Of a stretch of 64,000 nt of DNA, positions 5,404 to 51,579 are shown piece by piece. Under the pieces are notes generated by a model, which did no database searches, was not told where the DNA came from, and was given only the letters and a program-made list of their open reading frames with translations. The DNA comes from a virus (Duplodnaviria > Caudoviricetes), in the IMG/VR virus record IMGVR_UViG_3300032280_000800, positions 47,750 to 111,749 of that record; one strand, given 5' to 3'. Position 1 is the stretch's first letter; every line of letters begins with the position of its first letter. The translations under genes and the position numbers were made by a program.

Positions 5404-5404
5404 G

Positions 5405-27847: not shown

Positions 27848-27857
27848 AATTTATTCC

Positions 27858-30765: not shown

Positions 30766-30776
30766 TATTTCCTATA

Positions 30777-32384
30777 TCAACAATTATGAGGCTTGGTCCA
30801 TTCTTTAGATACTCTGAGAGTTCCAGTATTATTTTTTGTTATTGAACTTTGTGTTAAATACCATCCAGATGCACCCTCGCTTGATGCTAGACTGTTTGCT
30901 ATACCAACAGCACAACCTATTACTCCAGACATATCTCTAACATCACATCCTGGATTTTCTACGGTGGCTGTGACGTTTACTGCTACGGTTTCTTTTGTTG
31001 TTGTACCAAGATCCTGTAAAAGTGGCTCACCTCTAAATGGTATAGTAAATTCAGCAAATACGTCGGTAGGATAATTATGAGTAACTTCTGTTTCAACCTT
31101 AGTTGCCCCAGGAATACTACAATTTTGAGCTGTTGAATATTCAAAAGAAAAACCTATGGTTCCTTGTCCAAAATTTCTAGTTTCACTCTTATTAACTAGT
31201 CTTAATCCGCACTCTTGAGGAGGAACATAACTAGGACATATGCCTAATAGACCTCCGTCAGTACAGTCTCCAGTATCTGTTAAGACACCAGATAGGTACA
31301 TTGTTGCTAAACCTATAAAAGACCCAGACAAAGAGCTATAAGCACTTTCGGCATTACTTATTCTATTAGTACTCGATGGATGAAATTGTCCATTAGTTAT
31401 TAAGTCACTAAATGATGTTGTATATAAACCTTCTACTGTTCCTGATACAGTCACATTACGACCAACTTGTGCTGTCTCTGCTCTTGAATCGACGCTAATA
31501 TCTATAAATGCTTGAGGATACGGCGTTCCTGTTGGTCTAATAATTAAATCACCATTGACAGTTATCGTACCATTAATGGGGTCTGCATCCAAACTTCTAA
31601 CATGCATATATTTAGGACCAGCATGATATGATCCTAAAGCACTAATTAAAGAATTGGACGTTGATAATCCATTACTAATACTTCCAGACTCTAAAGCTGA
31701 TAGTCTTCTCTTTAAAACCTCCTCAGCTGCTTCTAGTCCTGTTTTTCTAGATACAGAAGCATCACAACCAACACCACCTCCTGTAGCACTAATATTGAAA
31801 CTATACTTAGCATGCGCCCTTCCCGCTTTATTTCCACCAGGTATTGAATCGCTAGAAAATGCATCATTATCTATATTCAATGTTATAGATTCTGATATAT
31901 CTTTGATGATCTCATTAGAAGTCACATAAGAAGTAGCTTTCGCATTAGGTTTTACTACAAGCTCACTCTCATTCTCATACATTTCTAATTCTACGGAATA
32001 GGCGGCAACTTGTGTCCAGCTAGGCTCAGGGCCTTCTTCGATATTTACAGATCTAACTGTACCGTATCCATTTACTAATATTGAGCCACTACAGTTAATA
32101 TTAATAGATACACAATCGCCTTTTTGACCAATATCTTTAAATTTACTCTTTAATTTACCAGCAATGTCGCTAAATCCACCATCAGTAGTATAAACAGTGC
32201 CATTTAAAGAAACAATTAGTGAACCACCAATAATTAAGTCGCCAACACGATATTGTTCAATAGATAATGATACAAAAGGAGCAGGGTCTAGTGAGACTCC
32301 ACCAACAGTTACCGTAGCTCCACCGGGAGGAATATTTTGAACGCTAATATTATCTACAGATGTTTCGTTTTGTACTTTAAACAT
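30777..32384 (-). CDS. tail protein immediately downstream of TMP (distal-tail-like)
   Basis: 535 aa, beta-rich, with repeated 'VSGTVEG / GTI.F.FEY' units; synteny. Confidence 0.6.
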   Translation of the reverse strand: MFKVQNETSVDNISVQNIPPGGATVTVGGVSLDPAPFVSLSIEQYRVGDLIIGGSLIVSLNGTVYTTDGGFSDIAGKLKSKFKDIGQKGDCVSININCSGSILVNGYGTVRSVNIEEGPEPSWTQVAAYSVELEMYENESELVVKPNAKATSYVTSNEIIKDISESITLNIDNDAFSSDSIPGGNKAGRAHAKYSFNISATGGGVGCDASVSRKTGLEAAEEVLKRRLSALESGSISNGLSTSNSLISALGSYHAGPKYMHVRSLDADPINGTITVNGDLIIRPTGTPYPQAFIDISVDSRAETAQVGRNVTVSGTVEGLYTTSFSDLITNGQFHPSSTNRISNAESAYSSLSGSFIGLATMYLSGVLTDTGDCTDGGLLGICPSYVPPQECGLRLVNKSETRNFGQGTIGFSFEYSTAQNCSIPGATKVETEVTHNYPTDVFAEFTIPFRGEPLLQDLGTTTKETVAVNVTATVENPGCDVRDMSGVIGCAVGIANSLASSEGASGWYLTQSSITKNNTGTLRVSKEWTKPHNC

Positions 32385-32410: not shown

Positions 32411-35400
32411 TTATCTACCTAATCCAATCAATTCGGTAACTCTTAATTGTATCTTATCTACTAGTCGTTTTTCGTCTTCTGGACTTAATTTATAGCTACT
32501 ATCTGCTGGAGATGTTAATTCTACTTCTATCTTACCCCCTTTAAAGGTTACTATTTCTGGAATACTTGGTCCTTTAATTTCAATAGATTTAATAGAATCT
32601 AAACCTCTAATAAAAGTATCAACATGTTTTCCAAAAGCGCTAACGGGACCACCTAATGCAGGGAAAACTCTTGCTAGATTATTTATAAGAGCTCCTAAAT
32701 TAGCAGTCTCAGCACCAAAAGATTTGATAAAGCTGTCAAATACTGTGTTGGCACTAGTCATATCAAATCCCATAGCCTTACCAAAAGATTGTGCCACGTT
32801 CATAACATTACTTCCTCCGCCAACCTTTCTATATATTGGATTAATAATTCCTCCAGATTGAGCATATGAAACTCCGCCCATACTGGGGGCGCTGCCAATA
32901 CTTCCATTATTAATAGCATTTAATAGTGGTAAGTGTTTATTTGTCGCTTGTTTATTTACAACATATTCTCCACGAGTTAACATTGCTGGAATAGTATCTG
33001 TACCCTTGGGTTGATAATTTACTAAAACAGAACCACCAGAGGATAAGTATTTGGGTTTAATAACATTGTCTAGATGGCTTCTTAATTTTTTCTCTTCTAA
33101 TATTTCTGGCCTATAAGCAGCTACATCATTCATATTAACTGCAACGTCTCCAAACCTATGCATACGATTATAATATTTTTGATATCCAAACCATGAAGAA
33201 TTCTCTTGGGTACTATTGTCTTTAAATGTTGGAATATTCTCAAATAATAATTTACCCAGATCAGATAATAATGGAGTGTATTGCTCGGCTTCGGATCGTT
33301 GAAGTGTCTCATCATTAAAAATTGCTTGAGCTTTTTGTTGTACTCTTTGATGAGCTAATTGAATTTTCTCTTTAACGTCTTGACCTAAAGATGGAGATGC
33401 TGCTGGGGCTTTGGGAGGAACTACTCCTGGCTTGTCTCCACCAGCACCAGCTGCTTCAATATCCTTAGCTTCCACAGACTGCATATCTAGATGTTTTTTC
33501 AAGTAAATAAAATTTGGATTACCGAATGGTGATGGCATAGTTGGGAAATTTGAAATTTCGCCAGTATATTTGCCTCCGAGTCTAGCTACTTGTTGTTTAA
33601 TCATTTCATATGGCTGTTGATACTCTGTAAATAGTCCAGAATATCCAGCAAAGAATCTATCAACAGTATCTGCTGGTATTTGTTTGTCAGCAATTTCTAC
33701 CTGATTTGCTCCCCTGTAAATTTTAGGCATTCCATTATTATCAATGGTTTGCACAATAGTTTTATTAGCATTTGGATCTGGCTTATTTACTAAGTCGGCA
33801 ACAGGCTCTGTGCCATAGCTTCTTAATGAATCCCAGAATTCATATGGCTTTTTAAGAGTTTTTAATCTATCTTGTATACCTTTTGCTGCTTTGTGATAAG
33901 ACGTATCTGGTGTTGTTGCTTTTAAATCTTTTGAACTTAATGCTTCTAGTCTTGCTTGTCTTTCGCTTACATTACGATCCTTATTAAAATTAAGAGTGTC
34001 TACTAAGAATTCTAAAAATTTAGTTTCTCCAGATAATGGCTTATTGTCCTGACCCATGAAAGGCTGCGCTGCTGCGTCACCAATTTCTGTATTTGCTCCG
34101 TTTAATAGATTAGCTCCTGCTGCAATTTCTCTCATTAATCCTGGAGTAATAGATTCTCTATTATTAATGGTAAATGTGTCAAGATTTTTAATTCTATCCA
34201 AAGTATTAACATCTGCTAAAACTGTATTTCTAACTTCTTCTGGGGTTCCGGGTAGTTTATAGTTGTCGTCAATTCTTTTCCATTGTTTAATGTCTTTTGG
34301 TGCTATTCCACCAAAAACCTTATCTAAATTAGCTCTCTTCCAAGTTGTATATCCTTGTCCAAGTTTTTTACGTAAACTAGTAATTTGTTCTTCTTCTGTT
34401 TTCCCTTCTGGTTTATTATCTATAGTTAGTTTCTTAAATCCTGGATTTACTTTTTTATATATGTTAGGATTACCATCTGCCATTTGTCCAGTATACAAGC
34501 CCATAGCAGCAATAGCATTCTGATAATTCTTTATAGTTTTTGGCAAAACATATTGTTCTTTGGATCTATTATCAGTTTGTGACGATGTAACCCCCTTAAT
34601 CTGTTTAAGGAATGCTTGCTTATAATTTTCTACAAAACTATCATCGTATGCTTTTTCTGTTGTTTGCAAGTTCCATAAACCAAACTTATCTGCAAAACTA
34701 TCGGTGGTAGGATTAGCACTTGCTGTACCATACATATTTTGTAGTTTATCCAAATTCCACGATAAACTACTATTAACAGATGGTAGGGACTGTGCAATAG
34801 TTGGATCTATTTTTTGTATCCAAGCTTTAAATTGTTCATTATTTTCTGGTATTTTTTCTTTAATACCAAGAGCACTACCATAATTCTTTAGCATTGTACT
34901 GATTAATTCATTAGTATCTCTAATGTATGGTCCAGACTCTCCGACAACATTCATCGATCCGGGTCTGCCATATGCCATATCAAAATTACTAAAAGTTTTG
35001 AATGGATTAATATGGGCTCCACCCTTTAATGGAGTATTAAATAATACGTATTCCATAGATGGAGAAGATTCAAATTTAACGCCAGCACCAACACGATTTT
35101 TGTATAGTTTATCTAATACTTCTTGTTTTTGTCTTTCTAATAGTTTAACAGAGTCTGAGTCTCTGCCTTCTTTTTTAATTTTCTCTGCTATATCTTTGTC
35201 AATTTTCTGCATTTGTACAGTAGCTTGATTTCTTTCTTCTTCGCTAAGAGTACCCATTCCAGTCATCATTTGGAGTGGATTGTTTTGTAAATCTTCTCTG
35301 TTTTCCCATCTGGCTCTCATAGTCCAATACTTCTCAAGCTCAGCATCATATTTATCTCTTTGCTTATTAAAGAAATCCCATGCTTTGCTAGATTCAATAA

Positions 35401-38400
35401 TGTTATTAGCTTTGGATGTTTTTTCTTCTAATTTACTGACTAATTTTTTACGGTTATCTTCAGAATCTCCAGGGTATCCATACTTGGTTAGTAAATCATT
35501 AATAACCTTTTGTGCAGCAACTTTATCTTCTTTGGTAACTCCAGTAATACCAGCAGATCCAGAGCCACTAAAGTTTTGCGACTTAAATTTACTATCAGAT
35601 AACTTATCTCGTAAATGTTTTTGTAGCATTTTACTTTGTGTTGTAACCTGTTGTGCGGCTTCTGGACCTCTTGATATTGGACTGTTATCTAGGTCTGGTA
35701 TGGATCCGCCAGCAAAATCTTTAAGATATCTAGATTTTAATTCATTAAACTTATTAATAACTAAACTATTCTCATCAGTATCTGTACCAGCAATATCCTG
35801 TTGAACAACACCAAATTCTCTTAAGTATTGTTGTAATGCCTGTTCGTTCGTTTGTTTTTTCTTATCTGACGGTATTGAAGATAGTGGAGTACTAAGAATA
35901 GATGCATTTCTCGTATACGCATTAAAATCCATTTTACCATCACTTTTCATAGCTTTGGCAACAATGGCTGGAAATGGCTTTCCGTTCATATCAAAAATAT
36001 CTTCTCCGTCAAATTTGTCTTCATTATTTCCTTTAAAGCCAAAATCTTGTGGTTTTGGTATTATTGGACTGGTAACATTAAATGCTGGGAAAGTATTTCC
36101 ATCTACATTCGGTATTCCAAGATTATTTTGTGCGATATAATCTCGTTCTAATTTTTTACGTAAAGCATTTCTTTCGTCAATATCCTTTTGCATATCTGGG
36201 GATATTGTCTTGGCATCTGACACTGTTTTGAGTTTCTCGTCGAGCTCTTTAAGTCTCTTATTTGCTTCTTCTCTTTCTTGTGCTCTTAACAGTTGCCCAC
36301 GATCAGAGCCATCACCCAGTTCATATTTTGGTATTTTTGCTCCACGAGCAGTAAAGTTAACCGCCCCCATAGGATCTTTAAGTCCCATAGCTTGTGCAAG
36401 TTGCATCTGACCAAACATATACTGATTGTCTTTGGTAGCAAATTCTTCAGTTCTATCTCTTTGCGTTGTCTCATAAGCTCTCTTTGCTACTTCCGCATTA
36501 ATTTTCATCTCTTCAATTGGGTCTGCCGACCATGTTGGTTTTGGTAATGGTCCTCCAGTAACCGGACCAGATGATCCAGAAGCTCCAGCATCTGGTGGCA
36601 TTGGTCTTTCTCCAAAAACAGCATTATATGCAGCAGAACCGATACCAGATACAATAGGCAGTGCTTGAAAAGCAAGACTAGTATAGCTTAATTTTCTCAA
36701 TACATCCCACGCTTTTGCTGATGTGGTATCTCCCTTTATTTTTAATTTTTCCCAAGCCCATTTACCAACAACATCTTTATAAGACGGACCCTTGGGGGCC
36801 TTCTTTTGTTTTATTAGGAGTTTCCCCTTCCTCTTCGGATCAGGTAAAACATTAAGACCCTGCTTTTTCAGAAGATCTAGTGCTTCGTCTTGACTAGTAG
36901 CCTCTATTGTGTCTCTTACTTCTCTTCCAGTTCGTGTGTCTAGGGCTTCATATATAAAAGTGGATTTTGGAGGCGTTTTTCCTGCTGCTGGAGCAGGTTT
37001 TGGTTTCGTTGAACCCGAAGGTTTTTTGGGTTTTGTTGTGTCAGAAGACTTGGGCTTGTATATGCTAGGTTTACCCTTCTCTACACTACGGCGACTAGCC
37101 AAAACATCCAAACCTTGCTTTTTAAGAAGTGCTATCGCTTCCTCTTGACTAACCGCTTCTATCGAATCTCTTACATCCATTCCAAAAGTTTTAGAACCAG
37201 CTCGTGTATCTCTAGCTTCATATTTGAAAGTAGATTTTGGTTTTATTGGGACTATTGGTGAATCCGCCCTTGGTTCTGCTGGAGTAGCTTCTGGTTTTGG
37301 TGCGACTGGTTTGGGAGGAGCTGCTGTTGGCTTTGTGTCTGACGCTTGTTGAGCAACCGCAGCTTCATTTGGAGTTTCTGGAGGTTTAGTTTTGGTTCCG
37401 GTTTTAGCTGCTTTTGCTTTAGCTGCTTTTCTAGCAGCATTAGCTGCTTCACCTACTCTAGCCTGTTCAAGTAATCTTGCACGTTCTGCCATCATTTCTG
37501 GCGTTGGATTAACAACAGCCTCACCAACCACCCTCTTGGATTTTTGAACAGTTTGTTCTGTACCGTCTTTAAATAATGCTAAACTTCTATTAGTAATTTC
37601 ATTAGCATTAGCGATAGGAATACTATTGGGAGAAAGTTTAATAGCATTAGATGTAATAGCGCCATTCTGTAACATTTTTGAGCTTACTGAGGTCGCTTTA
37701 CCAAAAGCTGATGTCATACCCTTTCTGATCATATCATCAGCAGCAGCACCTCCCATTAACTCAGCACCAAAGCCTATCCACTGTCCTCCTGAATATGATT
37801 CTGGACTAGCCTTCATCTTGTCCATAACTCTCTTCTTCATAGATGCTGGAATATATTTATTCCAGATATATGAATTTATATCTTGTCCTATTTGATCTCC
37901 AAGCATACCTCCAGTAAAGCCTAAAGATAATGCTCCAGCGGTTCCTGTAACGATTGCTCCTGGGCCAGTAATCAAGCCGCCCAGAGTTCCGATGGATCCA
38001 CCGGCAATTGCACCTAAACCACCACCAACAGCACCCAATACCCCAGGAATTGCTTTACTAGCCAAGCCATACATTAGACTTTCGAAATCAGCTGGCTCAA
38101 GGCCTAGTTTAGTATTTCTAAAAGCATTATCAACCTTCATAAATTCTGGAGTAAATGGAAAATTTCTATCTCCACCGAAGTAATTTTCTTCTAACGGATT
38201 ACGTCCACCAGTGATTCGTTTATCATACTGTATAGCGTGAGCAGCTTCGTAGGTTTTGTACCAATCCAAACTCGGACCAGGTTTAAGTTGTTTGTCTCTA
38301 AATGCTATTGCTTTATTTAAACTTTGATTGATTTGTTGAGTTTTGTTTTTATCTCCTCCAAAACCTAAAAATCCAGCAGCTTGTTTCTTTTCTTTTTGTA

Positions 38401-41400
38401 AATTGTCTATCAAAAGATCATTATCTGATAATATCTTATATTTTTGTTGTGCGGACGTTGAGAGGTATTTCTCATGATGCCCTGATACTGCCGAATTATA
38501 ACTCTTTAATTCTGACTTATTCAGTATGTTGTCTTTTGAGTTTGATCTAAAATCTACATACTTTAATAGATCGCTCTGTGGAAAATTATTTAAAGGAATA
38601 TGATCGGATGTTCCAGCTAATTTTTCCCACTCTGTATCTGGCACTATGGGGAATCTACTGCGAACACTACGGTCTAATAAACCTCCCTTAGATAAATATT
38701 TAACGCTGCCACCATTACTATACTTACCACTATTTATACTTTGTAATAATGGTAAATTCCTAGCTGTAGCAGCTCTATTAACAACGAATTCTCCCGGTGT
38801 TAACATTGCTGGAACAGTATCTGTTCCTTTGGGAGCAAAATCAACCATAGAGCCCATAGCGTAATAACTTATTAAACCACCTTTAGCTTTAGGAACAGCT
38901 CCGTCCACTCCTCCCAACCCTAATCTATTAGCAACACCATTTAATTGATCAACAATATCAGTAATAGCTGTTCTCATCTTATTTGTAAAATCATCAGCGG
39001 ATAACGACAGAGCCTGTGCTAATAATTGTCCGCTATCAGATATTAATCCTGATTGAGCCATAACAGCTTCTGTTTGAATTTTGGCAGCTTGGTTGAATGC
39101 ATCTATGTATGGTTTAATTTGTGGATTTTCTTGTGGTCTACCAAAATCAGGACCGAATACTTCTTTAAACTGATCAAATACAGCGGGGTCTCCGCCAGCA
39201 TTACCCAGTATGCGTGTAATATTATCAAATAATTCTTTTTGTAAGCGGGCAAATTCTTCTGGTGTTCTAGTAGATTCCAAAGATTGTAATGTTGATATTG
39301 CTCCCGGAATATCTTGTCTGCCACCAGCACCACCAACAACTCTATTGTAAGACTCAGTATCTTTAGCAAAATTAAACATAGCTTCAGGATTATCTAACAT
39401 ACCAAAGAAATCCATAACACTACGACGACGACCAGCAGAAATTTGTGATTGTTCATCAATCTTCTTAAGAGCGGCAGAAGCCCTATCTGTATTATTCGCT
39501 AGTGTATCTAGTGCTTTAGTATATTTATTAATTTTTGATGTTAGTTTTGCAATTTCGCCTGAGCCTAACGCGCTAGTTGCTGTTCCAGGATCGCTTTCTA
39601 GTATTCTCTTTCTGGCAACAGCATCCGCTATTTCTTTACCAATAGCAGTTGGATCTGTTATACCTCCAGTTAATCCTCTAACAGCAGAGTCTGATGGGTC
39701 AGTAAGCTCTCTTAATGAGATTGTTTGATTAAACTTTTCTTTAAGCTGTATGGCGCTTTGTAAATTGATGTCTTGTACTCTCACAGTATTATCTGCTAAT
39801 TTATCAAAATTACCAGCTAGCTGATCAGACACTGCACCAAGCTTACGATTAACATCTATTTGTTTCTTAGCATAATCTTCAAATGTTGCTCTAGCTTTTT
39901 CGGCAGCATCACTCAATTCTTTGAACGCTTGAACATCATTTGCAAGTTCTTCCATGGTCATGCCTTGTCTATTCATACTAGTACTAGCCCTTATCCACTT
40001 CATGACCTCGTCTTCTAGTTCTTTACGAATATCTGGAGACATATCAAGTCCACCAAACATGTTTGTTAGTCTTGAACGAACATTAGCTTCTGAACCAGCC
40101 GAAATATCAGCATTTGCCGTATCTCTTAATATTAAAGGCAATTCTTGTTGAATAGCCTGAAAGCCTTTAATAAAATCCCCCATTTGTTTGGTTTGCTTAT
40201 TATCTCCTAAACTCTTACCCACACTATCTACAGCAGATGCTAGCTCCTCTCTGCTATATGCTGTGATATTTTCTAGAATCCTAGCGTTTTGTGAATCTCC
40301 TTCATAGGCTTTGGCACCTCCGCCAGATAATTCACCAGCAACACTCATAGCTCTATCAGCACTTGCTCCTATTTCAGATACAATACGAGTCATGCTTGTT
40401 GATAGTCTATTCATAATATCAACAATATCTAATGTGAATTTTTTAACTGATCTATTAACAATCTCAAGTCTAGCTGCTAGTATTCTAGATCTATTTTCTC
40501 CACCTAGTTCTTTTTCTACAATAGCATCGATGTTGTCTGCTGCTGTTTTATTTTGGACTTTACCTTCTGGTGAGTAAGCTTGTTGATATTCTTTAACTGC
40601 TGTGGCTTCGTCCATACCTTGTCTTTGTCTGGCTTCATAATATATTCTTTTTCTAAGCTGGTCCTGTGCTTTAGCAACAGCCTCATCTGCTTTTTTACGT
40701 TTCTCAGAACCCGGCGCTAATGTGTCTAAAAATTCTTGTACGGTCTGAGAATTATCTACCTTCATTCCTTGAGCTTCTAAATTACTCCGCATCTGTTGTT
40801 CTTGTAAAATATTTAAAGAATTAAGTCTACCAGCACTGTCTTTTGATCTACCATATGCTGCTCTTCTTTGGTCTGCTGTTAGAGCAGCCTTCTCTATTGG
40901 TTGGCTTTGAGTAAGAACTCTTTCTGCAAAGGCTTGATTGCTAGTAGCGAACGCTTCGGTATTGTCTGCAATCTTTCTAAGTTGAATCAAACTCTCCATT
41001 TCTTTTTTAGCTTGTTCTATATCTTTACTATTATCAAAATAACCTTTGAAACCTTCAAATACTCCAACTAATTGAGATATAACAAATGCTATTTCTAATA
41101 GACCAGCGGCGCCACCACCCTTATATCCTCTAACAGCACCACCAGAAGCTAAGTGCTGAACACCTCCTGATGAAACTTTTGGTGATCTACCTGATGTTGA
41201 AATTTTGCTAGAAAACGCCCCAACAGAACCACCACGAGCAACTCTTTGTTGTTCTTGTATAGCATTTGGTTTCATTACTTGAGAATTAAACATATCTTGT
41301 ACAGACGATGATTTTATAACATAACTGAACGGCTTTACAGAAGTAGATACAGTATCAACATTGCTTGGTGCTCCCGGAACAATGTATGCTGACCCCAATT

Positions 41401-44400
41401 TCTGAGCAACTGTATTATTAACAGCACTTGCTCCACCACGATTAAGAGCGTCCAATTCTTGTATACTAGCTGGTAACGGTGGAGGTATAACCATCTCACC
41501 TTTTGCTAATTTAACAGGAACTAATCCTCCAGCAGACAACCCTACTCTACCGCCAGCAGCTTTTCTACTACGCCTTCTGCCTCCTCCACCGCTGGGCATA
41601 CCTCCTCCTATACGACTACCAATTTGAGCAGCTACCATCATACCCATAATGCTTGTCATAGTTGATAGCATACCTTCAAGGCCACTAGCAAAAGCATTCC
41701 ATACTTTATTATCCTTAATGGTTGTAGCTGATTTTTCTAAAGAAACATTTAATGCTTGATAGTTTCTATTCATTCTATCTAATAGTTCTTCTCTTTCTCC
41801 AAAAGTTTTAGCAGTAGCAAGCTCTCCTAGTGTTTTGTTGAGTTCGTTTGAAGCTCCAGCCACACCTCTCATAGCAAGTTCGGTTTCTTTGGCTGTTGAT
41901 TCTTTTATGAAACCAGCAACAGCACCGCTGGCTATACCAGCAGCACCACCTATAGCAGCACCCTTACCCTTAAAAGCCTGAGCGCCGATTAATGCTCCAC
42001 TCATACCGTATGAGCCAGCGCTTTGTAATGCTCCAGTAAAACCAGCTAGTGCTGGACTAGTATCAGAAACAGTACCAGCAAATTGATCTAAGCTATTTAA
42101 TATGGACGGCATTTGTGCGCTTAGTTGTGTTGCTCCTAAGCCTATAATACCAGTAATACCACCTATTTTATCTCCCATCTTGGTAACTCTGTCAGCAACT
42201 TTGGGAAAAGATCTCTCTATTAATCCCATTCCTGGAAGATTAGCTGTACTGTTAGCTCGTGCAACCCTGTCTAATCTTTGTCCTGTTGTCGATTCTAAAT
42301 TTCTTTGAGCCTGCCTTAAGTTTCCTTGTTCAAAGGCTCCAAACTTACCTTCCTTAAGAGACTGTTGTGCCCTAACATCAATACCCCTCACCTTCATTTT
42401 GCCGGTTAAGAACCCTAGTTCTTTTTCAAATTCTGAATGAGCGTGTTCTAATTCTGATAAGATTGTAATATCTTTATCTATAACGTTTGCTAATCCCTTA
42501 GAATCAAGGCTAGTTTTAATATCAGCAATAGAAGAGCCTCCTACTTTCTGCATACTTGCTATGATATCGTCTATAGATTTAGCTAAATCTGTTTCACCTA
42601 TTTTAGGATCAATTTTCTTAAATAACTCAGTAAGTCCTTCTCTGGTAGTTTTTTCAACATCTACATCTCCAATCTGACCCATATTTTTAGTAATTAGGTC
42701 TTGTATATCTGTTTGCGCAGTTGTCTTCTCCTCTGTCGCTTTTTCTGCCCTATTGTAAATTTGCTGTCTTATATTACGTTCATATTGTTGAAGGCTAATG
42801 CCGAGTTTATCAACAATTCTTTGTAAATAATCCATTCTATCAGCATCAACAGAGCCACCTCCTGCAAATTTACGGAGACCAACTCCACCACCACGATTAA
42901 GCCCTAAAGCTTTGGTCGCCTTTGCTCTCAAAACAAAACTACCAACTGGTAGATTAGTTCTGATGCTGTCGCTAGTACCACTACCCGGCCCTTTAAATAC
43001 TCCAACGCCACCACCTACCGCAAAACTTCCCATACCATTTTTATCAGCTTGGTTCATGCGGCCTAGCCTGCCATATCCTATACTTTTGGCAGTTGCCGGA
43101 GGAATGTAAGCCTCTCCATTACTAACTAGCGCAGGAACAGTTCCTCCCCCAGCAAATTGCGTAATGAATCCGCCATTAGCTTTTTGTTCAGCATCTTTGT
43201 TTCTATTGGCTCCTAAAAATTTAAATACATCATCAAAAGATCCACTATATACAATCTTAGCGCCACCTTCTGGATCATGCTCAAAAACATCATACCAAGT
43301 CCTTTTAGAATTAAAGGAATCCATGATGCTTTTACCTTCTCTCCACGAATATTTCTTACTCGGAGTTCCTCCGTCTGCAAACTTTTGTAGTATTCCTCCA
43401 TGAGATTTTTTAGTAGGTAACTTCTGCCCCATGGCTTTAAGAATATTATCTAATTCGGATACGGCAATATCTCCACTACCATACTGATCTAATAAAGCAT
43501 ATAGGGTCTCTGATAATGCGGTTACTCTACCTTGATTTGGTACTGACGTTCCCTTGGCTAGCTCCTGATAATCTGGCCAAGCCTTTTGTGCTTTAGATAG
43601 TTTGCGTTGAATAGAAGTTTTTTCGTCAGGGTCTTTTGTTGACTTTAATTCATCTTCTAATTCGCTAATATAGCTTGGAAAAGATGATCTAATATGACTA
43701 TCAATTGATGGATCAAAAGATAACTGTCCAGTTTTCTTAAACGAGCCTATAGCTTCTTCTGCTTGTGTATAAGCAGTATTACGACTTTCTGCCATTAGCG
43801 CTGCTGATGCTCTAGCTTCTTTAGCTGCTAGTGCTGGATTTTTTGTTTGTACTGACTTACCAAATGGTAATACTTCTTCTATCTCTGTATACCATCCGTC
43901 ATATTGCTTAATTAAATCTGGCTTAAGGGCTTCTAAAGCTTCTGGTTCTATATCATCTGGTAACTTAACTAATTTTTTGCCAATAGCAATACCAGCGCCA
44001 CCAGATTCAAAAGTCCACTTGTTAAGCTTATCATAATAATCAGCTAATACTTTGGGAAGCTTAATGCCGTAATGATCTGACCACTCAACACTATCATCGG
44101 TATCCGCATCCCTATAGGCTTGCGCAGCAAATGCGGCGTGATCTGATGGTGATAGTGGAACAAATCCACGAGCACCATAGGCCCCTCTTCTTTTGTTCTT
44201 GGTAGATCTATCTGGCTTAACGCCTCCCATAGACCCATCATCAAAAGCTTGAACTTGCCCACCCTCAAACCATTTACTAGGATTCTCATCATAATATCTA
44301 CCAAACTCTTTACGAGCTCTATCAAAAGCATAGCCAGTAAGAGTTCTCTTTACTTCTGTTGGAATATTACTTGGTATACCAAAATATTTAGCAGCTGGGC

Positions 44401-47400
44401 CGAGACCATTTTCAAAGTCTACAGCTCTATTTTGTTCTAGTTGAGCAATTGGTGGTAGGCTGGCACCAAGCTCTGCTAATGCTGCCTCTACGACAGCGCC
44501 CTCAATATTTCCTTGACCCATTAACTCTTGATATTCTGGAGCTAGTCCTGGCTCTTTATAGAGATAAGCTTTTTTTCCAGATTTTTCAGCAGCACCAACA
44601 TTATCTGCGTTATCATCAATTAATTTTTCTGCTTTACTTAAATTAGCTGCTTTGGCACTAGCAATATCTGTTCCAAGACCCTGACTGACTCCGGTAATAT
44701 CTTCTTTACGGTAAGGTAAACCAAAACTCTGAAGAGTCTGTGCCAAAAGATCCTCAGTATTTTGTGGTCTAGCAGTAAGGACTCTGGTTTGTTTAATAAA
44801 GTCTGGATTGGCATCTATTAGAGATTTTAACTTGGCTCCTAGTTTTGTTAATCTACCCTTCTTTAGAGCTTCTTCTACGACGGTTCTATCAGAATATTTG
44901 GGAATGTCAGGCTTGCCTTTTTCATTAAGAATATCTGCTCCAGCAACTAAAGTTTCATCAAAATCGAAAGCTAATGGCTCGCCAGTGAATATATCGGCAT
45001 ATTGTAGATTTTCTGCAAACTGACTCTTAGCGGATGCTGTTTGTTGTTGCATTTTAGTAACAGCATCGAAATATTGGGACTTGAAGCCTCTAGCATAAGC
45101 ATAAACAGTGCGATTATTACCAATATCCCAATTATCAAAATCTTTAGAATAATCTAATTTACCCTGACTATCTACTAAACCAACAACACCAACCTTTTTC
45201 ATTTTTTCAACTTTGGCAGCATACTCTGCGTCTTGTACTCCCTTAGACGATAGAGCATTATTGATTACGTCTGAAGCACCAAGTAAATCTATCTGCCCCT
45301 TAGAAATCATGTCTTTCCTAAGCCTTCTGCGTAGATTAGTAGGGATAGCCGTTAGTTCTGCTACACCAGCTTCGTTACCTAGTCCGGCTAATTGCTTAAC
45401 TAAAACATCTCTAACAGCTTCTTCTATACTTAATCCTGCGTCACTCTTAAGGCTCTTTTTAGCTAAAATACCAACTTGTCCATAAGGTCTTAATAAGCTT
45501 TCATCAACATCAACTTCACCAGCATCAGCAAATTTTTGTATGAATCCTCCATTGGATTTTTTATTTGCCAGCACTTCTCTCATTCCTGTAGTAATATTAT
45601 GACGTCCGCTATTTCCTTCTTTCTTATATGCGGCGGGCTGATTGAATCCTGCTAATAATTTTTTAGCTTTGTCGTCTTTGTCAGTTACAACCTGTTCAAT
45701 AGATTGTGTTAATACTCCTGGTAAAATTTTTGATACCTCAGGATCAGTATCATAAAAATCGTTGCCTAAAGCTTTTATATTAGCAGCTAACTGTTTTTTT
45801 AAGGGCGTGTAATTATCATTCAGTATTTCTTGTTCTTCTGAATCTCCTCTACCTGTGAATCTAAATCTCTTATTGCTACCAGTTCTTAAAGATTTGAAAA
45901 CATCTCTACTCTTAACATAAGAAGCTAATTTACTATTAAAAGACCCTTCATTATTTATGATATATTTACCATCTACTTGCTTGGCCCAGTCAGCATTCCA
46001 AGTTTCTGGTAAGTCAAGCCCCATATTACTATAAAGCCTAGTAATATTCCCATAACCATTTTCTTGAGCATATTTTTTTAAATTTTTTGGAATATCAGTT
46101 TGAGTTTTAGCTAGCTCTATATGAGTAAAATCAGTATCTCCACCAGAAGGAAGTTGTTTATTAACTGTTTTAGATTTTTTAACTCCCTTATCACCAGATG
46201 ACCCCTTACCAAATCTTTGTACAACTCCCCCACTATTCATAGCATCTAGTGTGTCTGTGCCATATTTATTAACAGCATCACGACTCATAACATATTCTCT
46301 TGGCTCTAATAGAGCAGATACTTTGTCTCCTCTACCAGTACCAGGAACACTACCACCTCTTTTAAATCCTAATATCTTGCCTCCATTACTAGCTGTTGTT
46401 GGACTAGTTGGGCTAGATCCTCCTGTTGTAAGAGACAGAGTATCTATAGCTTGAGTTAGATTATTTAAGCCAATAATCATATTTGCTAATGTAATATTAA
46501 CAATCGATAATTGTGATGTATTTGCTGCTGTAGCAATAGTATTGGCTTTTACAGATTTGGAACTTGCTGGAGTACCCTTACCACCTTTGCCTCCAGAACC
46601 TCCTGAGCCGCCACCACCTGGACCGCCACCACCTGGACCGCCACCAGAACCACCTCCTCCAGTTGGAGGTCCACCAGAACCACCACTTGGTGCTCCACCT
46701 CTGCCAATACCTCCTACAAACCCAGAAGCAAATTCACTAAGAATAGAAGCTCCCTTAATAGCGGCCAAGGCTGTCAACATTGGCAATAGTGGCTTGAGTG
46801 CTGATGCCATAGAAATAAAAGCATTGGCTGTGGTTAAGCTAATGGTTGCAATTGTTCTAAATGTACTACTATTACCAATATCTCTAATTAAAGCAACAAA
46901 TGCTTGTCGTGTTTTTTCAAACTGAACAGCTAATGATTGTTGAGCTTGTACAGCGTTTTTGCTTAATGATGCCTGACCATTTTGAGCAACTGATAAGGCA
47001 TCTTGAGCAGTGGCGAATTGTTGAATAAGTGGGATAACTTTACCTATTTGTCTAAATCCACCAAGCTCTTCTACTATTTTAGAAAATCTTATATCTCTAG
47101 GATCAAGACCGGATAACCCTTCACTTAATCTTCTTACGGCCTCATATGGCCCAACGAACTTCCCTTCTAGATCGGTTAATACTATGCCGTACTCCTTTAA
47201 AGCTTCTATTGTTGAGCCTCTCTGAATTCTAGTAAAAATAGTCCTTAAGCCCGTAGCAATAGTTTCTGCACTTTCACGAGTTGTTGCTCTAACACTAGTA
47301 AATAAAGCAACGAATTCATTTAAAGCGTCTGTGCCTTTGCTAACTCCATTGCTAGCAGCAGCAAAAACACCACCGGTCCTTTGAATAGCTGTGATAATAT

Positions 47401-48217
47401 CTCCGGCCTCAACAGCAAATGCAGCAGCTACAGCATTGATACTACCCAAAGCACCCTCTAGCTCACCAGTACTAATATTAAACTGACGCATTAAAGCAAT
47501 ACTGCCTTCGACCGTACTATTTAAATCATCAAAGGATGGAGCTAATGCCGACTTGGCTAGGGCTTCTAATGCTGTTTTGGTGTCTTGGGCAGATAATCCT
47601 GCCTGTGCTAGTGTCACTGACACTTGTAGTAAATCGGACGAAGTCACACCCAAATTGGTAGATAGTCTTGTAATTTCTTTGGTAATATCAGATAGTCCCG
47701 AAACACTTGTTCCAGTAACTTGTGATAATCTAACTATCTCTTTATCAAAATTAACGAATTCTTTAAAAGCACTATTAACTGCATTGGTTAAGCCATAAAT
47801 AACACCAGTAACCGTACTAAAAGCAGCAAACCTTCTAATAGCTAATCCAGACTGCTTACCAAACTCTTGCATTTGTGTACCAGCAACAGAAACAGCTTTA
47901 CCAGCATTGCTAGCGGCTTTACCTGTTGCTGCCAATGTTGTTGGTCCAGAAGAACCTAGTCCTCCTAAGCTAGTTGCTAATTGTTGTATGCTAGCACTTA
48001 ATTGATTAATATTACTATTAGCTTTAATCGCATTAGTAGAAATATTTTGTAATCCCTTATTAACTGTAGCTATACTTTTAGAAGCCGATCCTTTGAGGTC
48101 TAAATCAACCTTAACTTTAATATTAGATAATTGTTTTCTAATAGAAGAAGCAATAGCTCTTGTATTTGTAGGACCTCGTAGATTAATCTGTGCAGTTAAA
48201 TTAAATGCTGCTGCCAT
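32411..48217 (-). CDS. giant tape measure protein with embedded cargo domains
   Basis: 5268 aa. N-terminal TP901-type tape-measure region (FDKEIVRLSQVTG...LAQAGLS...ETIATGLRTIFTRI), repeated GTD(T/S)VPAML..GE.V modules typical of TMPs, position after the tube and chaperone genes, SD GGAG. Confidence 0.9.
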   Translation of the reverse strand: MAAAFNLTAQINLRGPTNTRAIASSIRKQLSNIKVKVDLDLKGSASKSIATVNKGLQNISTNAIKANSNINQLSASIQQLATSLGGLGSSGPTTLAATGKAASNAGKAVSVAGTQMQEFGKQSGLAIRRFAAFSTVTGVIYGLTNAVNSAFKEFVNFDKEIVRLSQVTGTSVSGLSDITKEITRLSTNLGVTSSDLLQVSVTLAQAGLSAQDTKTALEALAKSALAPSFDDLNSTVEGSIALMRQFNISTGELEGALGSINAVAAAFAVEAGDIITAIQRTGGVFAAASNGVSKGTDALNEFVALFTSVRATTRESAETIATGLRTIFTRIQRGSTIEALKEYGIVLTDLEGKFVGPYEAVRRLSEGLSGLDPRDIRFSKIVEELGGFRQIGKVIPLIQQFATAQDALSVAQNGQASLSKNAVQAQQSLAVQFEKTRQAFVALIRDIGNSSTFRTIATISLTTANAFISMASALKPLLPMLTALAAIKGASILSEFASGFVGGIGRGGAPSGGSGGPPTGGGGSGGGPGGGGPGGGGSGGSGGKGGKGTPASSKSVKANTIATAANTSQLSIVNITLANMIIGLNNLTQAIDTLSLTTGGSSPTSPTTASNGGKILGFKRGGSVPGTGRGDKVSALLEPREYVMSRDAVNKYGTDTLDAMNSGGVVQRFGKGSSGDKGVKKSKTVNKQLPSGGDTDFTHIELAKTQTDIPKNLKKYAQENGYGNITRLYSNMGLDLPETWNADWAKQVDGKYIINNEGSFNSKLASYVKSRDVFKSLRTGSNKRFRFTGRGDSEEQEILNDNYTPLKKQLAANIKALGNDFYDTDPEVSKILPGVLTQSIEQVVTDKDDKAKKLLAGFNQPAAYKKEGNSGRHNITTGMREVLANKKSNGGFIQKFADAGEVDVDESLLRPYGQVGILAKKSLKSDAGLSIEEAVRDVLVKQLAGLGNEAGVAELTAIPTNLRRRLRKDMISKGQIDLLGASDVINNALSSKGVQDAEYAAKVEKMKKVGVVGLVDSQGKLDYSKDFDNWDIGNNRTVYAYARGFKSQYFDAVTKMQQQTASAKSQFAENLQYADIFTGEPLAFDFDETLVAGADILNEKGKPDIPKYSDRTVVEEALKKGRLTKLGAKLKSLIDANPDFIKQTRVLTARPQNTEDLLAQTLQSFGLPYRKEDITGVSQGLGTDIASAKAANLSKAEKLIDDNADNVGAAEKSGKKAYLYKEPGLAPEYQELMGQGNIEGAVVEAALAELGASLPPIAQLEQNRAVDFENGLGPAAKYFGIPSNIPTEVKRTLTGYAFDRARKEFGRYYDENPSKWFEGGQVQAFDDGSMGGVKPDRSTKNKRRGAYGARGFVPLSPSDHAAFAAQAYRDADTDDSVEWSDHYGIKLPKVLADYYDKLNKWTFESGGAGIAIGKKLVKLPDDIEPEALEALKPDLIKQYDGWYTEIEEVLPFGKSVQTKNPALAAKEARASAALMAESRNTAYTQAEEAIGSFKKTGQLSFDPSIDSHIRSSFPSYISELEDELKSTKDPDEKTSIQRKLSKAQKAWPDYQELAKGTSVPNQGRVTALSETLYALLDQYGSGDIAVSELDNILKAMGQKLPTKKSHGGILQKFADGGTPSKKYSWREGKSIMDSFNSKRTWYDVFEHDPEGGAKIVYSGSFDDVFKFLGANRNKDAEQKANGGFITQFAGGGTVPALVSNGEAYIPPATAKSIGYGRLGRMNQADKNGMGSFAVGGGVGVFKGPGSGTSDSIRTNLPVGSFVLRAKATKALGLNRGGGVGLRKFAGGGSVDADRMDYLQRIVDKLGISLQQYERNIRQQIYNRAEKATEEKTTAQTDIQDLITKNMGQIGDVDVEKTTREGLTELFKKIDPKIGETDLAKSIDDIIASMQKVGGSSIADIKTSLDSKGLANVIDKDITILSELEHAHSEFEKELGFLTGKMKVRGIDVRAQQSLKEGKFGAFEQGNLRQAQRNLESTTGQRLDRVARANSTANLPGMGLIERSFPKVADRVTKMGDKIGGITGIIGLGATQLSAQMPSILNSLDQFAGTVSDTSPALAGFTGALQSAGSYGMSGALIGAQAFKGKGAAIGGAAGIASGAVAGFIKESTAKETELAMRGVAGASNELNKTLGELATAKTFGEREELLDRMNRNYQALNVSLEKSATTIKDNKVWNAFASGLEGMLSTMTSIMGMMVAAQIGSRIGGGMPSGGGGRRRSRKAAGGRVGLSAGGLVPVKLAKGEMVIPPPLPASIQELDALNRGGASAVNNTVAQKLGSAYIVPGAPSNVDTVSTSVKPFSYVIKSSSVQDMFNSQVMKPNAIQEQQRVARGGSVGAFSSKISTSGRSPKVSSGGVQHLASGGAVRGYKGGGAAGLLEIAFVISQLVGVFEGFKGYFDNSKDIEQAKKEMESLIQLRKIADNTEAFATSNQAFAERVLTQSQPIEKAALTADQRRAAYGRSKDSAGRLNSLNILQEQQMRSNLEAQGMKVDNSQTVQEFLDTLAPGSEKRKKADEAVAKAQDQLRKRIYYEARQRQGMDEATAVKEYQQAYSPEGKVQNKTAADNIDAIVEKELGGENRSRILAARLEIVNRSVKKFTLDIVDIMNRLSTSMTRIVSEIGASADRAMSVAGELSGGGAKAYEGDSQNARILENITAYSREELASAVDSVGKSLGDNKQTKQMGDFIKGFQAIQQELPLILRDTANADISAGSEANVRSRLTNMFGGLDMSPDIRKELEDEVMKWIRASTSMNRQGMTMEELANDVQAFKELSDAAEKARATFEDYAKKQIDVNRKLGAVSDQLAGNFDKLADNTVRVQDINLQSAIQLKEKFNQTISLRELTDPSDSAVRGLTGGITDPTAIGKEIADAVARKRILESDPGTATSALGSGEIAKLTSKINKYTKALDTLANNTDRASAALKKIDEQSQISAGRRRSVMDFFGMLDNPEAMFNFAKDTESYNRVVGGAGGRQDIPGAISTLQSLESTRTPEEFARLQKELFDNITRILGNAGGDPAVFDQFKEVFGPDFGRPQENPQIKPYIDAFNQAAKIQTEAVMAQSGLISDSGQLLAQALSLSADDFTNKMRTAITDIVDQLNGVANRLGLGGVDGAVPKAKGGLISYYAMGSMVDFAPKGTDTVPAMLTPGEFVVNRAATARNLPLLQSINSGKYSNGGSVKYLSKGGLLDRSVRSRFPIVPDTEWEKLAGTSDHIPLNNFPQSDLLKYVDFRSNSKDNILNKSELKSYNSAVSGHHEKYLSTSAQQKYKILSDNDLLIDNLQKEKKQAAGFLGFGGDKNKTQQINQSLNKAIAFRDKQLKPGPSLDWYKTYEAAHAIQYDKRITGGRNPLEENYFGGDRNFPFTPEFMKVDNAFRNTKLGLEPADFESLMYGLASKAIPGVLGAVGGGLGAIAGGSIGTLGGLITGPGAIVTGTAGALSLGFTGGMLGDQIGQDINSYIWNKYIPASMKKRVMDKMKASPESYSGGQWIGFGAELMGGAAADDMIRKGMTSAFGKATSVSSKMLQNGAITSNAIKLSPNSIPIANANEITNRSLALFKDGTEQTVQKSKRVVGEAVVNPTPEMMAERARLLEQARVGEAANAARKAAKAKAAKTGTKTKPPETPNEAAVAQQASDTKPTAAPPKPVAPKPEATPAEPRADSPIVPIKPKSTFKYEARDTRAGSKTFGMDVRDSIEAVSQEEAIALLKKQGLDVLASRRSVEKGKPSIYKPKSSDTTKPKKPSGSTKPKPAPAAGKTPPKSTFIYEALDTRTGREVRDTIEATSQDEALDLLKKQGLNVLPDPKRKGKLLIKQKKAPKGPSYKDVVGKWAWEKLKIKGDTTSAKAWDVLRKLSYTSLAFQALPIVSGIGSAAYNAVFGERPMPPDAGASGSSGPVTGGPLPKPTWSADPIEEMKINAEVAKRAYETTQRDRTEEFATKDNQYMFGQMQLAQAMGLKDPMGAVNFTARGAKIPKYELGDGSDRGQLLRAQEREEANKRLKELDEKLKTVSDAKTISPDMQKDIDERNALRKKLERDYIAQNNLGIPNVDGNTFPAFNVTSPIIPKPQDFGFKGNNEDKFDGEDIFDMNGKPFPAIVAKAMKSDGKMDFNAYTRNASILSTPLSSIPSDKKKQTNEQALQQYLREFGVVQQDIAGTDTDENSLVINKFNELKSRYLKDFAGGSIPDLDNSPISRGPEAAQQVTTQSKMLQKHLRDKLSDSKFKSQNFSGSGSAGITGVTKEDKVAAQKVINDLLTKYGYPGDSEDNRKKLVSKLEEKTSKANNIIESSKAWDFFNKQRDKYDAELEKYWTMRARWENREDLQNNPLQMMTGMGTLSEEERNQATVQMQKIDKDIAEKIKKEGRDSDSVKLLERQKQEVLDKLYKNRVGAGVKFESSPSMEYVLFNTPLKGGAHINPFKTFSNFDMAYGRPGSMNVVGESGPYIRDTNELISTMLKNYGSALGIKEKIPENNEQFKAWIQKIDPTIAQSLPSVNSSLSWNLDKLQNMYGTASANPTTDSFADKFGLWNLQTTEKAYDDSFVENYKQAFLKQIKGVTSSQTDNRSKEQYVLPKTIKNYQNAIAAMGLYTGQMADGNPNIYKKVNPGFKKLTIDNKPEGKTEEEQITSLRKKLGQGYTTWKRANLDKVFGGIAPKDIKQWKRIDDNYKLPGTPEEVRNTVLADVNTLDRIKNLDTFTINNRESITPGLMREIAAGANLLNGANTEIGDAAAQPFMGQDNKPLSGETKFLEFLVDTLNFNKDRNVSERQARLEALSSKDLKATTPDTSYHKAAKGIQDRLKTLKKPYEFWDSLRSYGTEPVADLVNKPDPNANKTIVQTIDNNGMPKIYRGANQVEIADKQIPADTVDRFFAGYSGLFTEYQQPYEMIKQQVARLGGKYTGEISNFPTMPSPFGNPNFIYLKKHLDMQSVEAKDIEAAGAGGDKPGVVPPKAPAASPSLGQDVKEKIQLAHQRVQQKAQAIFNDETLQRSEAEQYTPLLSDLGKLLFENIPTFKDNSTQENSSWFGYQKYYNRMHRFGDVAVNMNDVAAYRPEILEEKKLRSHLDNVIKPKYLSSGGSVLVNYQPKGTDTIPAMLTRGEYVVNKQATNKHLPLLNAINNGSIGSAPSMGGVSYAQSGGIINPIYRKVGGGSNVMNVAQSFGKAMGFDMTSANTVFDSFIKSFGAETANLGALINNLARVFPALGGPVSAFGKHVDTFIRGLDSIKSIEIKGPSIPEIVTFKGGKIEVELTSPADSSYKLSPEDEKRLVDKIQLRVTELIGLGR
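36845..37238 (-). repeat. two tandem ~41-46-aa PilC/GspF N-terminal-like domains inside TMP
   Basis: KSTFKYEARDTRAG...VRDSIEAVSQEEAIALLKKQGLDVL (~37238-37100) and KSTFIYEALDTRTGREVRDTIEATSQDEALDLLKKQGLNVL (~36968-36845). Confidence 0.75.
44555..44980 (-). other. HAD-superfamily phosphatase domain inside TMP
   Basis: AFDFDETL (motif I), VLTAR (II), AK (III), LIDD (IV). Confidence 0.8.
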
Positions 48218-49531: not shown

Positions 49532-49534
49532 AAA

Positions 49535-50584: not shown

Positions 50585-50618
50585 ACTTCCCTTAAAAATA
50601 TCCTAATAATTTTATCAA

Positions 50619-51476: not shown

Positions 51477-51533
51477 CTATGGTACTCCTGCTCCTACAAA
51501 TTTTATAAAATATAATACTATTATAGTAAGTAT

Positions 51534-51553: not shown

Positions 51554-51579
51554 TTACTCATGTTCCCAATAAGCAGATA

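Follow-up and report, generated by a model that had tools for sequence, protein, structure and literature searches.

The 5268-aa tail tape measure protein (TMP) of this virus carries two tandem copies of T2SSF_N (PF28597, Pfam 38), the ~40-aa N-domain of the GspF/PilC platform proteins, an identification that we regard as almost certain. The window, that is, the whole stretch of 64,000 nt analysed here, belongs to a virus contig of 111.7 kb with a GC content of 34.5%. Both copies lie inside one ORF, where the first-pass annotation had correctly placed them, and together they span window positions 36836-37234 on the minus strand, ~70% along the TMP (Table 1). They are the only two T2SSF_N copies in the whole contig.

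Table 1 Features of the tape measure gene and of its N-domain region, in window coordinates.
Feature	Start	End	Strand	Details
TMP gene	32411	48217	-	single 15.8-kb ORF, 5268 aa
PhageMin_Tail domain PF10145	47096	47680	-	residues 180-374; E 2.6e-24 (Pfam scan)
Glycine-zipper-like hydrophobic segment	37898	38053	-	residues 3389-3440; 52 uncharged aa (hydropathy/charge scan)
Exchangeable cassette, basic linkers and both N-domains	36767	37516	-	residues ~3568-3817; from P0018 alignment
T2SSF_N copy 1	37094	37234	-	residues 3662-3708; 47 aa; PilC-N profile i-E 1.2e-7
Lys/Pro/Ser-rich inter-copy linker	36965	37093	-	net +7 over 30 aa; low pLDDT
T2SSF_N copy 2	36836	36964	-	residues 3752-3794; 43 aa; PilC-N profile i-E 9.7e-10
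Uncharged 27-aa segment	36611	36691	-	residues 3843-3869; Kyte-Doolittle maximum 1.14

The ORF was taken as a TMP gene because it has a PhageMin_Tail domain. PHROGs 4211, 28, 1533, 1272, 4704 and 29312, all TMP families, matched its N-terminal part, and phrog_25241 matched near its C-terminus. Judged by the PF10145 and PHROG profiles, the product is a tail tape measure protein, as had been claimed from the sequence at first sight. PHROG and Pfam profiles matched hardly any of the co-directional neighbours; the layout is compatible with a TMP position, with the neighbours unannotated. Related TMPs of 5291-5483 aa were present in independent assemblies. A phmmer search of the PDB sequences returned nothing relevant to the repeats or to either half of the TMP.

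The likeness of the repeats to PilC/GspF N-termini, on which the first-pass annotation was built, was far above chance in the profile comparisons, and chance resemblance to PilC was rejected on these statistics. A Planctomycetota PilC N-terminus profile, run against the six-frame translated window, matched only these two sites. The profile search suggested at that earlier stage was thus positive, with T2SSF N-terminal matches at E 1e-7 and 1e-9. Alignment of the repeats to the PilC N-domain by hhalign gave a 99% probability (E 3.6e-18), and positions 1-37 of TIGR02120 (NCBIfam GspF) matched with an E-value of 2.9e-4 for copy 2 by itself and of 2.4e-6 for the two copies together. In the protein database, the TMP carries the precomputed Pfam annotation PF10145+PF28597, and PF28597 was carried by all of the 30 ESM Atlas clusters nearest to copy 2. 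A profile of the repeats, searched against 1.84e9 proteins (hmmsearch), recovered the T2SSF N-terminal fragments P0009 and P0010. Arg_repressor and PASTA matches in the repeat region were sub-threshold noise, seen with a Pfam copy without PF28597.

Structure prediction agreed with this assignment. Copy 2, modelled by AF2 with an alignment, reached a pLDDT of 90.5 (E2-9, E14-21, H25-34, E37-39), and copy 1 was likewise predicted as beta-beta-alpha-beta (pLDDT ~80). The PDB neighbours of the predicted copy-2 fold were YkzG and T7 Gp2, the same two that are given for the PulF N-domain (PMC10790770). No solved PilC N-domain structure was found for comparison. A second PDB structure comparison of the repeat gave Z ≤4.5, uninformative at 43 aa, and the ribosomal Foldseek matches to the two-domain model were meaningless, due to the floppy linker.

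The resemblance ends with the N-domain. The full-length PilC HMM aligned to the TMP over positions 3-42 only, and PF00482 (T2SSF) had no match anywhere in the virus record. According to these profiles, the TMP is not itself a platform protein, and the captured part is the N-domain alone. The "platform" decoy of the first-pass annotation is thereby reduced to a ~40-aa domain.

The two copies share 69% of their amino acids, and the beta-hairpin of copy 1 is longer by a 5-aa insertion. Their DNA is ~75-80% identical, synonymous differences are numerous, and dN/dS between them was 0.195, at a dS of ~1 (saturated). With a ratio of ~0.2, the copies are, to judge from their codons, kept under purifying selection. 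Three related TMPs retain the N-domain copies; in a fourth, P0018, an unrelated segment takes their place. P0018 is near-identical to the TMP until residue ~3567, continues with ~200 unrelated aa in which T2SSF_N is absent, and realigns weakly from ~residue 3818, at a KWAWEKLK block. Copy 1 is identical in the relatives P0003 and P0017, and the substitutions among the related TMPs sit at positions that are also variable among PilCs. By these alignments, the copies form a swappable cassette within the TMP family, which has several hypervariable stretches. An assembly chimera was rejected, because the same architecture was present in three independent assemblies.

Lys/Pro-rich stretches flank both copies, in line with the earlier description of Pro/Lys-rich linkers. 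The inter-copy linker differs in length among the relatives, by insertions of 7-9 aa. The loop of residues 3441-3834 has 70 K+R vs 43 D+E, a net charge of +27. Upstream of it, the glycine-zipper segment that had been described first was recovered as 52 uncharged residues (nt 38053-37898). It is identical in four of four relatives, and possibly folds as a helical hairpin. Less of the claimed downstream TM helix was retained: there are indeed 27 uncharged residues, but the hydropathy maximum of 1.14 and the variability in relatives make it less convincing as a TM helix than the first-pass annotation had suggested. This moderately hydrophobic, poorly conserved segment is a candidate TM or amphipathic helix.

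T2SSF_N copies were also detected in an unrelated phage lineage (P0005, P0013, P0019 and P0020; loci L052 and L053). The gene for its giant protein, uncharacterised and known from metagenomes, follows portal, protease, major head and adaptor genes and precedes tail-fibre-like genes, which is the TMP position. The members have 3-5 diverged T2SSF_N copies, the last of them 25-30 aa upstream of an uncharged segment of 36-41 aa, and they share a GTD-x-IPAM...GE-x-V-x-N motif. The second lineage differs in its unrelated head genes, its protein length (2300-3300 aa), an SNase domain and far more diverged copies, and its precomputed Pfam annotations are without PF10145. Viral contigs scanned with P0001 and P0005 gave no match, a tblastn search of 50,697 GenBank phages with repeat 2 gave E=9 noise only, and a TMP with T2SSF_N was not found in the literature searched. 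The sole match to the degenerate DNA pattern D-[ST]-I-E-A-x-S-Q-x-E-A, the IMG/VR ORF L028, looks like chance.

The nearest cellular relatives of the copies are type IVa PilC proteins of Planctomycetota (41-62% identity, the upper value reached by copy 2), with the best matches in pilT-pilB-pilC operons. Matches were obtained in 41 of 151 Planctomycetota genomes (best 47.8 bits) and in 7 of 151 genomes from the phylum of the Rhodospirillales GspF genome (best 20.9 bits). The N-domain does not behave as a promiscuous module, because 37 of the 43 matches in the 151 Planctomycetota genomes were to PilC-sized frames (396-566 aa). Of the other six, several seem to be weak matches or frames cut at a contig end, among the latter the PilC locus L019. 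A free-standing P0006 ortholog did not turn up in 48 genomes of the G003 order, where every match was PilC-sized. From these similarities, the N-domain was apparently taken from a bacterial pilC/gspF gene, most likely a Planctomycetota-type type IVa pilC, and then duplicated. A planctomycete host, at which the first-pass annotation had hinted, is moderately supported. The nearest relatives speak for it, but the proteobacterial GspF N-domains are likewise ~50% identical to the copies and the GC content does not match: planctomycete loci have mostly 58-68% GC vs 34.5% in the phage, with a few lineages down to 43-45%. To our knowledge, almost no cultured phages of Planctomycetota exist, and the Planctomycetota-type PilC provides a host hint for a very novel 112-kb virus.

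The passage of siphophage DNA across the cytoplasmic membrane is poorly understood. In the few known cases (lambda, HK97, T5), it involves contacts of the TMP with host inner-membrane proteins. Because the T2SSF_N copies adjoin the putative membrane-inserting segments of the TMP, we suggest that they may act as a virion-delivered pilus mimic. The TMP would leave the virion before the DNA does, with its hydrophobic segments entering the host cytoplasmic membrane. The basic cassette (net +27) would then reach the cytoplasmic face, the compartment of PilC's own N-domain, and could repeat there the native contact of this domain with the inner-membrane part of a type IV pilus or T2SS machine. [quoted passage not shown] The N-domain of PulF (residues 1-54) hangs by a flexible tether at the cytoplasmic side of the membrane and makes pilus assembly more efficient (PMC10790770). 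The pilus-dependent siphophage JBD30 releases three copies of its TMP ahead of the DNA (PMC11445458). We consider the whole chain, from N-domain mimic to docking at the pilus base, tentative, with the odds leaning slightly against it. A bolder version, in which the mimic plugs the DNA conduit into the pilus basal body or reprogrammes the basal body immediately, and phage lineages exchange the cassette as an entry module specific for a host machine, seems to us somewhat unlikely.

Several points weigh against docking. The PulF N-domain is peripheral, can be dispensed with for PulF function and has no known partner (PMC10790770). The ATPase contact of PulF is modelled on the Cyto1/Cyto2 domains and not on the N-domain (PMC10790770), so that the engagement of PilB/PilT, which the first-pass annotation took for granted, is not established for this part of the protein. 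The topology argument leans on biased charge and on a second segment of weak hydrophobicity, and a hydrophilic loop of 390 aa would have to cross the membrane from outside. Only a few planctomycete lineages go down to 43-45% GC, against 34.5% in the phage, and the virus record, searched for other pilus-related genes, encodes none.

The cassette could also work with no specific pilus contact, if, where the TMP channel opens, the N-domain and the Lys-rich linkers bound anionic phospholipid head groups, DNA or both and thereby anchored the conduit or guided the genome. MD simulations of PulF showed the N-domain and its loop remaining on PG/cardiolipin membranes but leaving POPC (PMC10790770). Residues 1-80 of the N. 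meningitidis PilG show non-specific binding to ss and ds DNA; PilG RKK43-45 is required for DNA binding and transformation (PMC4527729). The TMP copies end with KK-Q-G-L and are followed by R/K-rich stretches, within the strongly basic loop, and hydrophobic segments adjoin the copies in both phage lineages. However, lipid or DNA binding by Lys-rich linkers would not require a conserved folded domain, and the PilC-conserved positions are retained by purifying selection. The near restriction of the domain to PilC/GspF in cellular genomes fits a machine-specific role better, and we rate such a generic role in lipid or DNA binding as somewhat unlikely.

It is quite improbable that the injected, membrane-tethered N-domains titrate PilB or PilT as a decoy, halt pilus extension/retraction and so exclude superinfecting pilus-dependent phages. 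Disarming of type IV pili via PilB or PilC is known from Tip, Aqs1, Zip and the host CpiA (PMC11656802; PMC13436744), but the inhibitors known so far are produced from phage genomes and not brought in with the virion. A mutation in the meningococcal pilG N-domain, as cited in PMC10790770, is suppressed by PilT loss, which links the domain to extension/retraction. With three TMP copies, as in JBD30 (PMC11445458), the tandem duplication would bring six domains per virion; these ~6 domains would face many pilus machines. Deletion of the N-domain merely lowers efficiency (PMC10790770), so that piliation would survive a competition for its partner. Because the ATPase is modelled on other domains and the N-domain is dispensable, an N-domain decoy alone need not jam the pilus.

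Slightly more improbable still is a role inside the virion alone (tail assembly, length determination, a lumen plug or spacer, or a tolerated passenger): TMPs tolerate insertions, hypervariable stretches occur in this family and P0018 manages without the domains, but dN/dS is ~0.2 over a saturated dS, copy 1 is unchanged in three relatives, the second lineage repeats the arrangement beside a membrane segment, and a folded beta-beta-alpha-beta domain would be an odd filler of a helical lumen.

Docking by mimicry, if true, would be the first mimicry built into an ejection apparatus, in an arrangement that recurs in two unrelated phage lineages. The phage copy, being under selection, would also offer an independent handle on the partner of the GspF/PilC N-domain, and a natural bait. 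The TMP copies share with that domain (PulF 1-54, PMC10790770) the motif F-x-Y-x-A-x-D ... I-E-A-x-S-x-x-E-A ... G-L, the predicted beta-beta-alpha-beta fold with its weak YkzG/T7 Gp2 neighbours, and a flexible basic linker after the domain. They differ in being internal and tandem, instead of standing N-terminally in a T2SSF protein with three TM segments, and the TMP is without the Cyto1, Cyto2 or T2SSF (PF00482) domains of the platform.

Accessory domains inside tape measures, delivered at infection, have precedents. Mycobacteriophage TMPs contain Rpf-like motifs, and those of SPbeta-like phages and T5 a lytic transglycosylase/peptidase; among our database matches, the SPbeta-type TMPs carried a lytic transglycosylase annotation. 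These known cargoes are cell-wall hydrolases acting outside the membrane, whereas the cargo described here is a copy of a cytoplasmic host-machine domain. Lambda gpH needs ManYZ, and the HK97 TMP needs PtsG/FkpA. Both exit the tail first and engage the cytoplasmic membrane or its proteins for DNA entry, as proposed here, where homology alone points to the partner; we know of no host-protein mimicry domain in either.

Tip, Aqs1 and Zip act on PilB/PilZ and are phage proteins directed against the cytoplasmic/inner-membrane pilus motor (PMC11656802, PMC13436744), a possible target of this TMP. PfsE of Pf, which acts on PilC, belongs to the same group. They are small non-virion proteins without pilus homology, made after infection or by prophages. 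In contrast, this TMP has a host-derived pilus domain built into an ejected structural protein.

One ORF in the window encodes a tape measure protein (TMP), since its product matched PF10145 (PhageMin_Tail; residues 180-374, E 2.6e-24) and PHROG TMP families, six in its N-terminal part and one more near the C-terminus. Supposing a full helix at 1.5 Å per residue, the tail it measures would be ~0.8 µm long. The window comes from a linear virus contig of IMG/VR (111.7 kb, estimated completeness 79%), and the phage is very distant from described phages. Nearly all neighbours of the TMP gene in the structural module lacked a PHROG or Pfam match, the sole matches being a Hoc-like Ig stretch and a weak virion-protein match. 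Another product, of 733 aa, combines two fibronectin type III domains with a PA14/GLEYA carbohydrate-binding domain and may be an adhesin or a virion decoration that binds glycans.

Features of the window, its TMP and the compared loci
Feature	Sequence	TMP residues	Positions (nt)	Strand	Remarks
TMP ORF	window		32411..48217	-	ORF call; single, 15.8 kb, 5268 aa
Uncharged glycine-rich segment (glycine zipper)	window	3389-3440			52 aa; upstream of copies
N-domain copy 1	window	3662-3708	37234-37094	-	tandem repeat
N-domain copy 2	window	3752-3794	36964-36836	-	tandem repeat
Uncharged, only moderately hydrophobic segment	window	3843-3869			27 aa; downstream of copies
~65-aa motif, first site	window	3123-3188	about 38653-38850
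~65-aa motif, second site	window	5065-5130	about 32827-33024
TMP structural-module neighbours	window		24755-32384, 48321-53487	-	Hoc-like Ig stretch in 28828-30765; weak virion-protein match in 50619-51476
733-aa protein	window		60046-62247	-
Stand-alone T2SSF_N ORF	L049 (G042:C18)		4091-4309		planctomycete genome
Second-lineage phage contig	L052 (Ga0114974_10001139)		1-17098		JGI; 42% GC
Second-lineage phage contig	L053 (Ga0209296_1002893)		1-11954		JGI; 42% GC

The TMP carries two tandem copies of a small domain that are 69% identical, with 5 aa inserted into the first hairpin of copy 1. Both are surrounded by Lys/Pro-rich linkers in a loop (residues 3441-3834, net charge +27) between two uncharged segments. 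The first-pass annotation had described them as mimics of the PilC/GspF N-terminal domain, and both the repeats and the homology were confirmed. A profile of both copies, searched against 1.84 billion representative proteins, retrieved a 92%-identical relative and two short proteins, P0009 and P0010, whose matching N-termini run into a T2SSF domain; P0010 is 97% identical to PilC of a Planctomycetota MAG. A reciprocal HMM (48 positions) was built from 25 PilC/GspF N-termini, 24 from Planctomycetota and one from Rhodospirillales. In the six-frame window it matched only copy 1 and copy 2 (i-E 1.2e-7 and 9.7e-10), and the full contig gave no further match. By hhalign, the repeat pair aligned to 18 PilC/GspF N-termini, proteobacterial ones included, with 99% probability (E 3.6e-18; 39 columns, 49% identity). 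The top NCBIfam match was the curated GspF model TIGR02120, aligned via model positions 1-37. The newer Pfam annotation in the protein database gives this TMP PF10145 and PF28597 (T2SSF_N), and PF28597 was found in 30 of the 30 nearest ESM-Atlas clusters. AF2 modelled a single copy as beta-beta-alpha-beta (pLDDT 90.5), with YkzG and T7 Gp2 as weak PDB neighbours; exactly the same two were reported for the PulF N-domain by Guilvout et al. (PMC10790770). The likeness is therefore real by several independent routes and well above chance. The N-domain is the only part of PilC/GspF captured, since a full-length PilC HMM aligned to the TMP solely via positions 3-42 and no T2SSF domain was found anywhere in the virus. 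Searches of the phage for a T2SSE ATPase, a pilin signal and tRNAs were also negative.

Two phyla were sampled directly for the origin of the domain. A two-sequence profile matched 41 of 151 Planctomycetota genomes (best 47.8 bits), against 7 of 151 from the phylum to which the Rhodospirillales GspF genome belongs (best 20.9 bits), which supports the planctomycete flavour noted at first pass. Planctomycetota PilC N-domains were 41-62% identical to the TMP copies; proteobacterial GspF N-domains also reached about 50%. The matched planctomycete genes sit in pilT-pilB(MshEN)-pilC operons and are therefore type IVa-like. Of the 43 Planctomycetota matches, 37 lay in reading frames 396-566 aa long, and among the other six several look like contig-end cuts (one being the PilC locus L019) or weak matches. 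In cells, T2SSF_N is therefore essentially restricted to PilC/GspF rather than a promiscuous module. GC content was 34.5% in the window (1-64000), 38.0% in the TMP gene and 41.9% in the N-domain region, a slight rise that is weak evidence for a foreign (host) origin of the cassette. The 34.5% of the phage compares with 58-68% at most planctomycete loci; a few lineages have 43-45%, among them that of L019 (genome G003), one of the best matches. On balance, the host is slightly more likely than not to belong to Planctomycetota or related phyla.

Stand-alone T2SSF_N domains were also seen. The metagenomic P0006 (97 aa), whose N-domain is 80% identical to the L019 PilC, adds one TM helix and is a natural membrane-tethered N-domain; no ortholog of it was found in 48 genomes of the order of G003. 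Another, an ORF of roughly 73 aa in a planctomycete genome, lies between cobalamin genes and a desaturase gene.

Many synonymous changes separate the two copies (40 codons; dS about 0.98, dN 0.19, dN/dS 0.195), so the duplication is old, with both copies maintained. Both were kept in three TMPs from independent assemblies, P0003 (5291 aa), P0017 (5467 aa) and that of the window. Copy 1 was identical in all three, and copy 2 had 7-11 substitutions, all at positions that also vary among PilCs. A further relative, P0018 (5483 aa), is near-identical to the window TMP up to a point about 130 residues past the glycine zipper. At the site of the N-domain pair it has an unrelated segment of ~200 aa and then a Pro/Lys-rich linker of its own, and it weakly realigns before the second hydrophobic segment; residues about 3568-3817 therefore form an exchangeable cassette. 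Hypervariable blocks were found at residues about 600-900, 3200-3400 and 4800-5000. At residues 701-900, P0003, the relative with 92% identity, is only 31-42% identical, and near this block P0017 has ~170 extra residues and a precomputed PF03496 (ADP-ribosyltransferase exoenzyme). This suggests one tape measure with several swappable cargo cassettes.

The domain recurs in a second phage lineage. Its giant proteins P0005, P0013, P0019 and P0020 (2300-3300 aa) have precomputed PF28597 and carry 3 to 5 diverged copies, the best of which matches the PilC-N profile with i-E about 2e-6. On contigs L052 and L053, the giant protein (more than 2300 aa) directly follows portal, protease, major head and head-tail adaptor genes and precedes tail-fibre-like genes; it thus holds the TMP position in an otherwise unrelated phage. 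It also has an SNase domain alongside the diverged copies. In all members an uncharged segment of 36-41 aa follows the last copy at a distance of 25-30 aa, an adjacency shared with the window TMP.

A ~65-aa motif, K-G-T-D-T-[VI]-P-A-M-L-T-x-G-E-[FY]-V-V-N ... L-P-L-L-x-x-I-N-x-G, occurs twice in the window TMP. The two sites cross-match in P0018 (48% identity), PHROG TMP families match the motif, and P0005 has a similar motif. Residues about 1079-1222 (44551-44981) had no Pfam match (E<=0.1) and no phmmer match among PDB sequences.

In Klebsiella PulF, the N-domain (residues 1-54) sits at the periphery on a flexible tether; trimerisation and stability are independent of it, and it is dispensable, yet pilus assembly and secretion are fully efficient only when it is present (PMC10790770). 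That study names no partner for it, and its model places the PulE ATPase on the Cyto domains of a construct without the N-domain (PMC10790770), so the first-pass annotation overstated ATPase engagement as established for this domain. A meningococcal pilG N-domain mutant is suppressed by PilT loss (as cited in PMC10790770), and in cyanobacteria, regulators of the PatA type bind the cytoplasmic domain at the N-terminus of PilC (bioRxiv 10.1101/2021.06.11.447907). Siphophage JBD30, which depends on pili, releases three TMP copies ahead of its DNA, and these are proposed channel formers (PMC11445458).

The results above establish the domain's identity, its copy number, the selection on it, the cassette behaviour, its closeness to hydrophobic segments and its recurrence in two phage lineages; the mechanism is inferred. 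We tentatively prefer a reading in which the DNA conduit is docked or stabilised at a pilus or T2SS basal body. Once ejected, the TMP would insert its hydrophobic segments into the cytoplasmic membrane. Its strongly basic cassette would end on the cytoplasmic face, favoured by the positive-inside bias and a membrane potential negative inside, and the N-domains would then make the same contact as PilC's own. The main rival, somewhat less likely, takes the domain and its Lys-rich linkers as generic binders of anionic lipid or DNA. In MD simulations the PulF N-domain and loop remain on PG/cardiolipin membranes (PMC10790770); residues 1-80 of N. meningitidis PilG are non-specific DNA binders, with RKK43-45 important for transformation (PMC4527729). 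A decoy or ATPase-docking mechanism, as first proposed, is plausible, but a decoy for pilus jamming or superinfection exclusion is improbable, weakened by the dispensability of the N-domain and by the small number of copies, only about six, that each virion would deliver. A purely virion-internal role is slightly more doubtful still, being hard to square with the selection pattern and with the recurrence in the second lineage.

No paper linking TMPs with GspF/PilC domains was found in a literature search, and no GenBank phage had a detectable copy. The known phage anti-pilus proteins Tip, Aqs1 and Zip are small, expressed and act on PilB (PMC11656802, PMC13436744). A host pilus-platform N-domain as a swappable TMP cassette appears to be an undescribed architecture, and it belongs to a known kind, the TMPs with embedded cargo domains.
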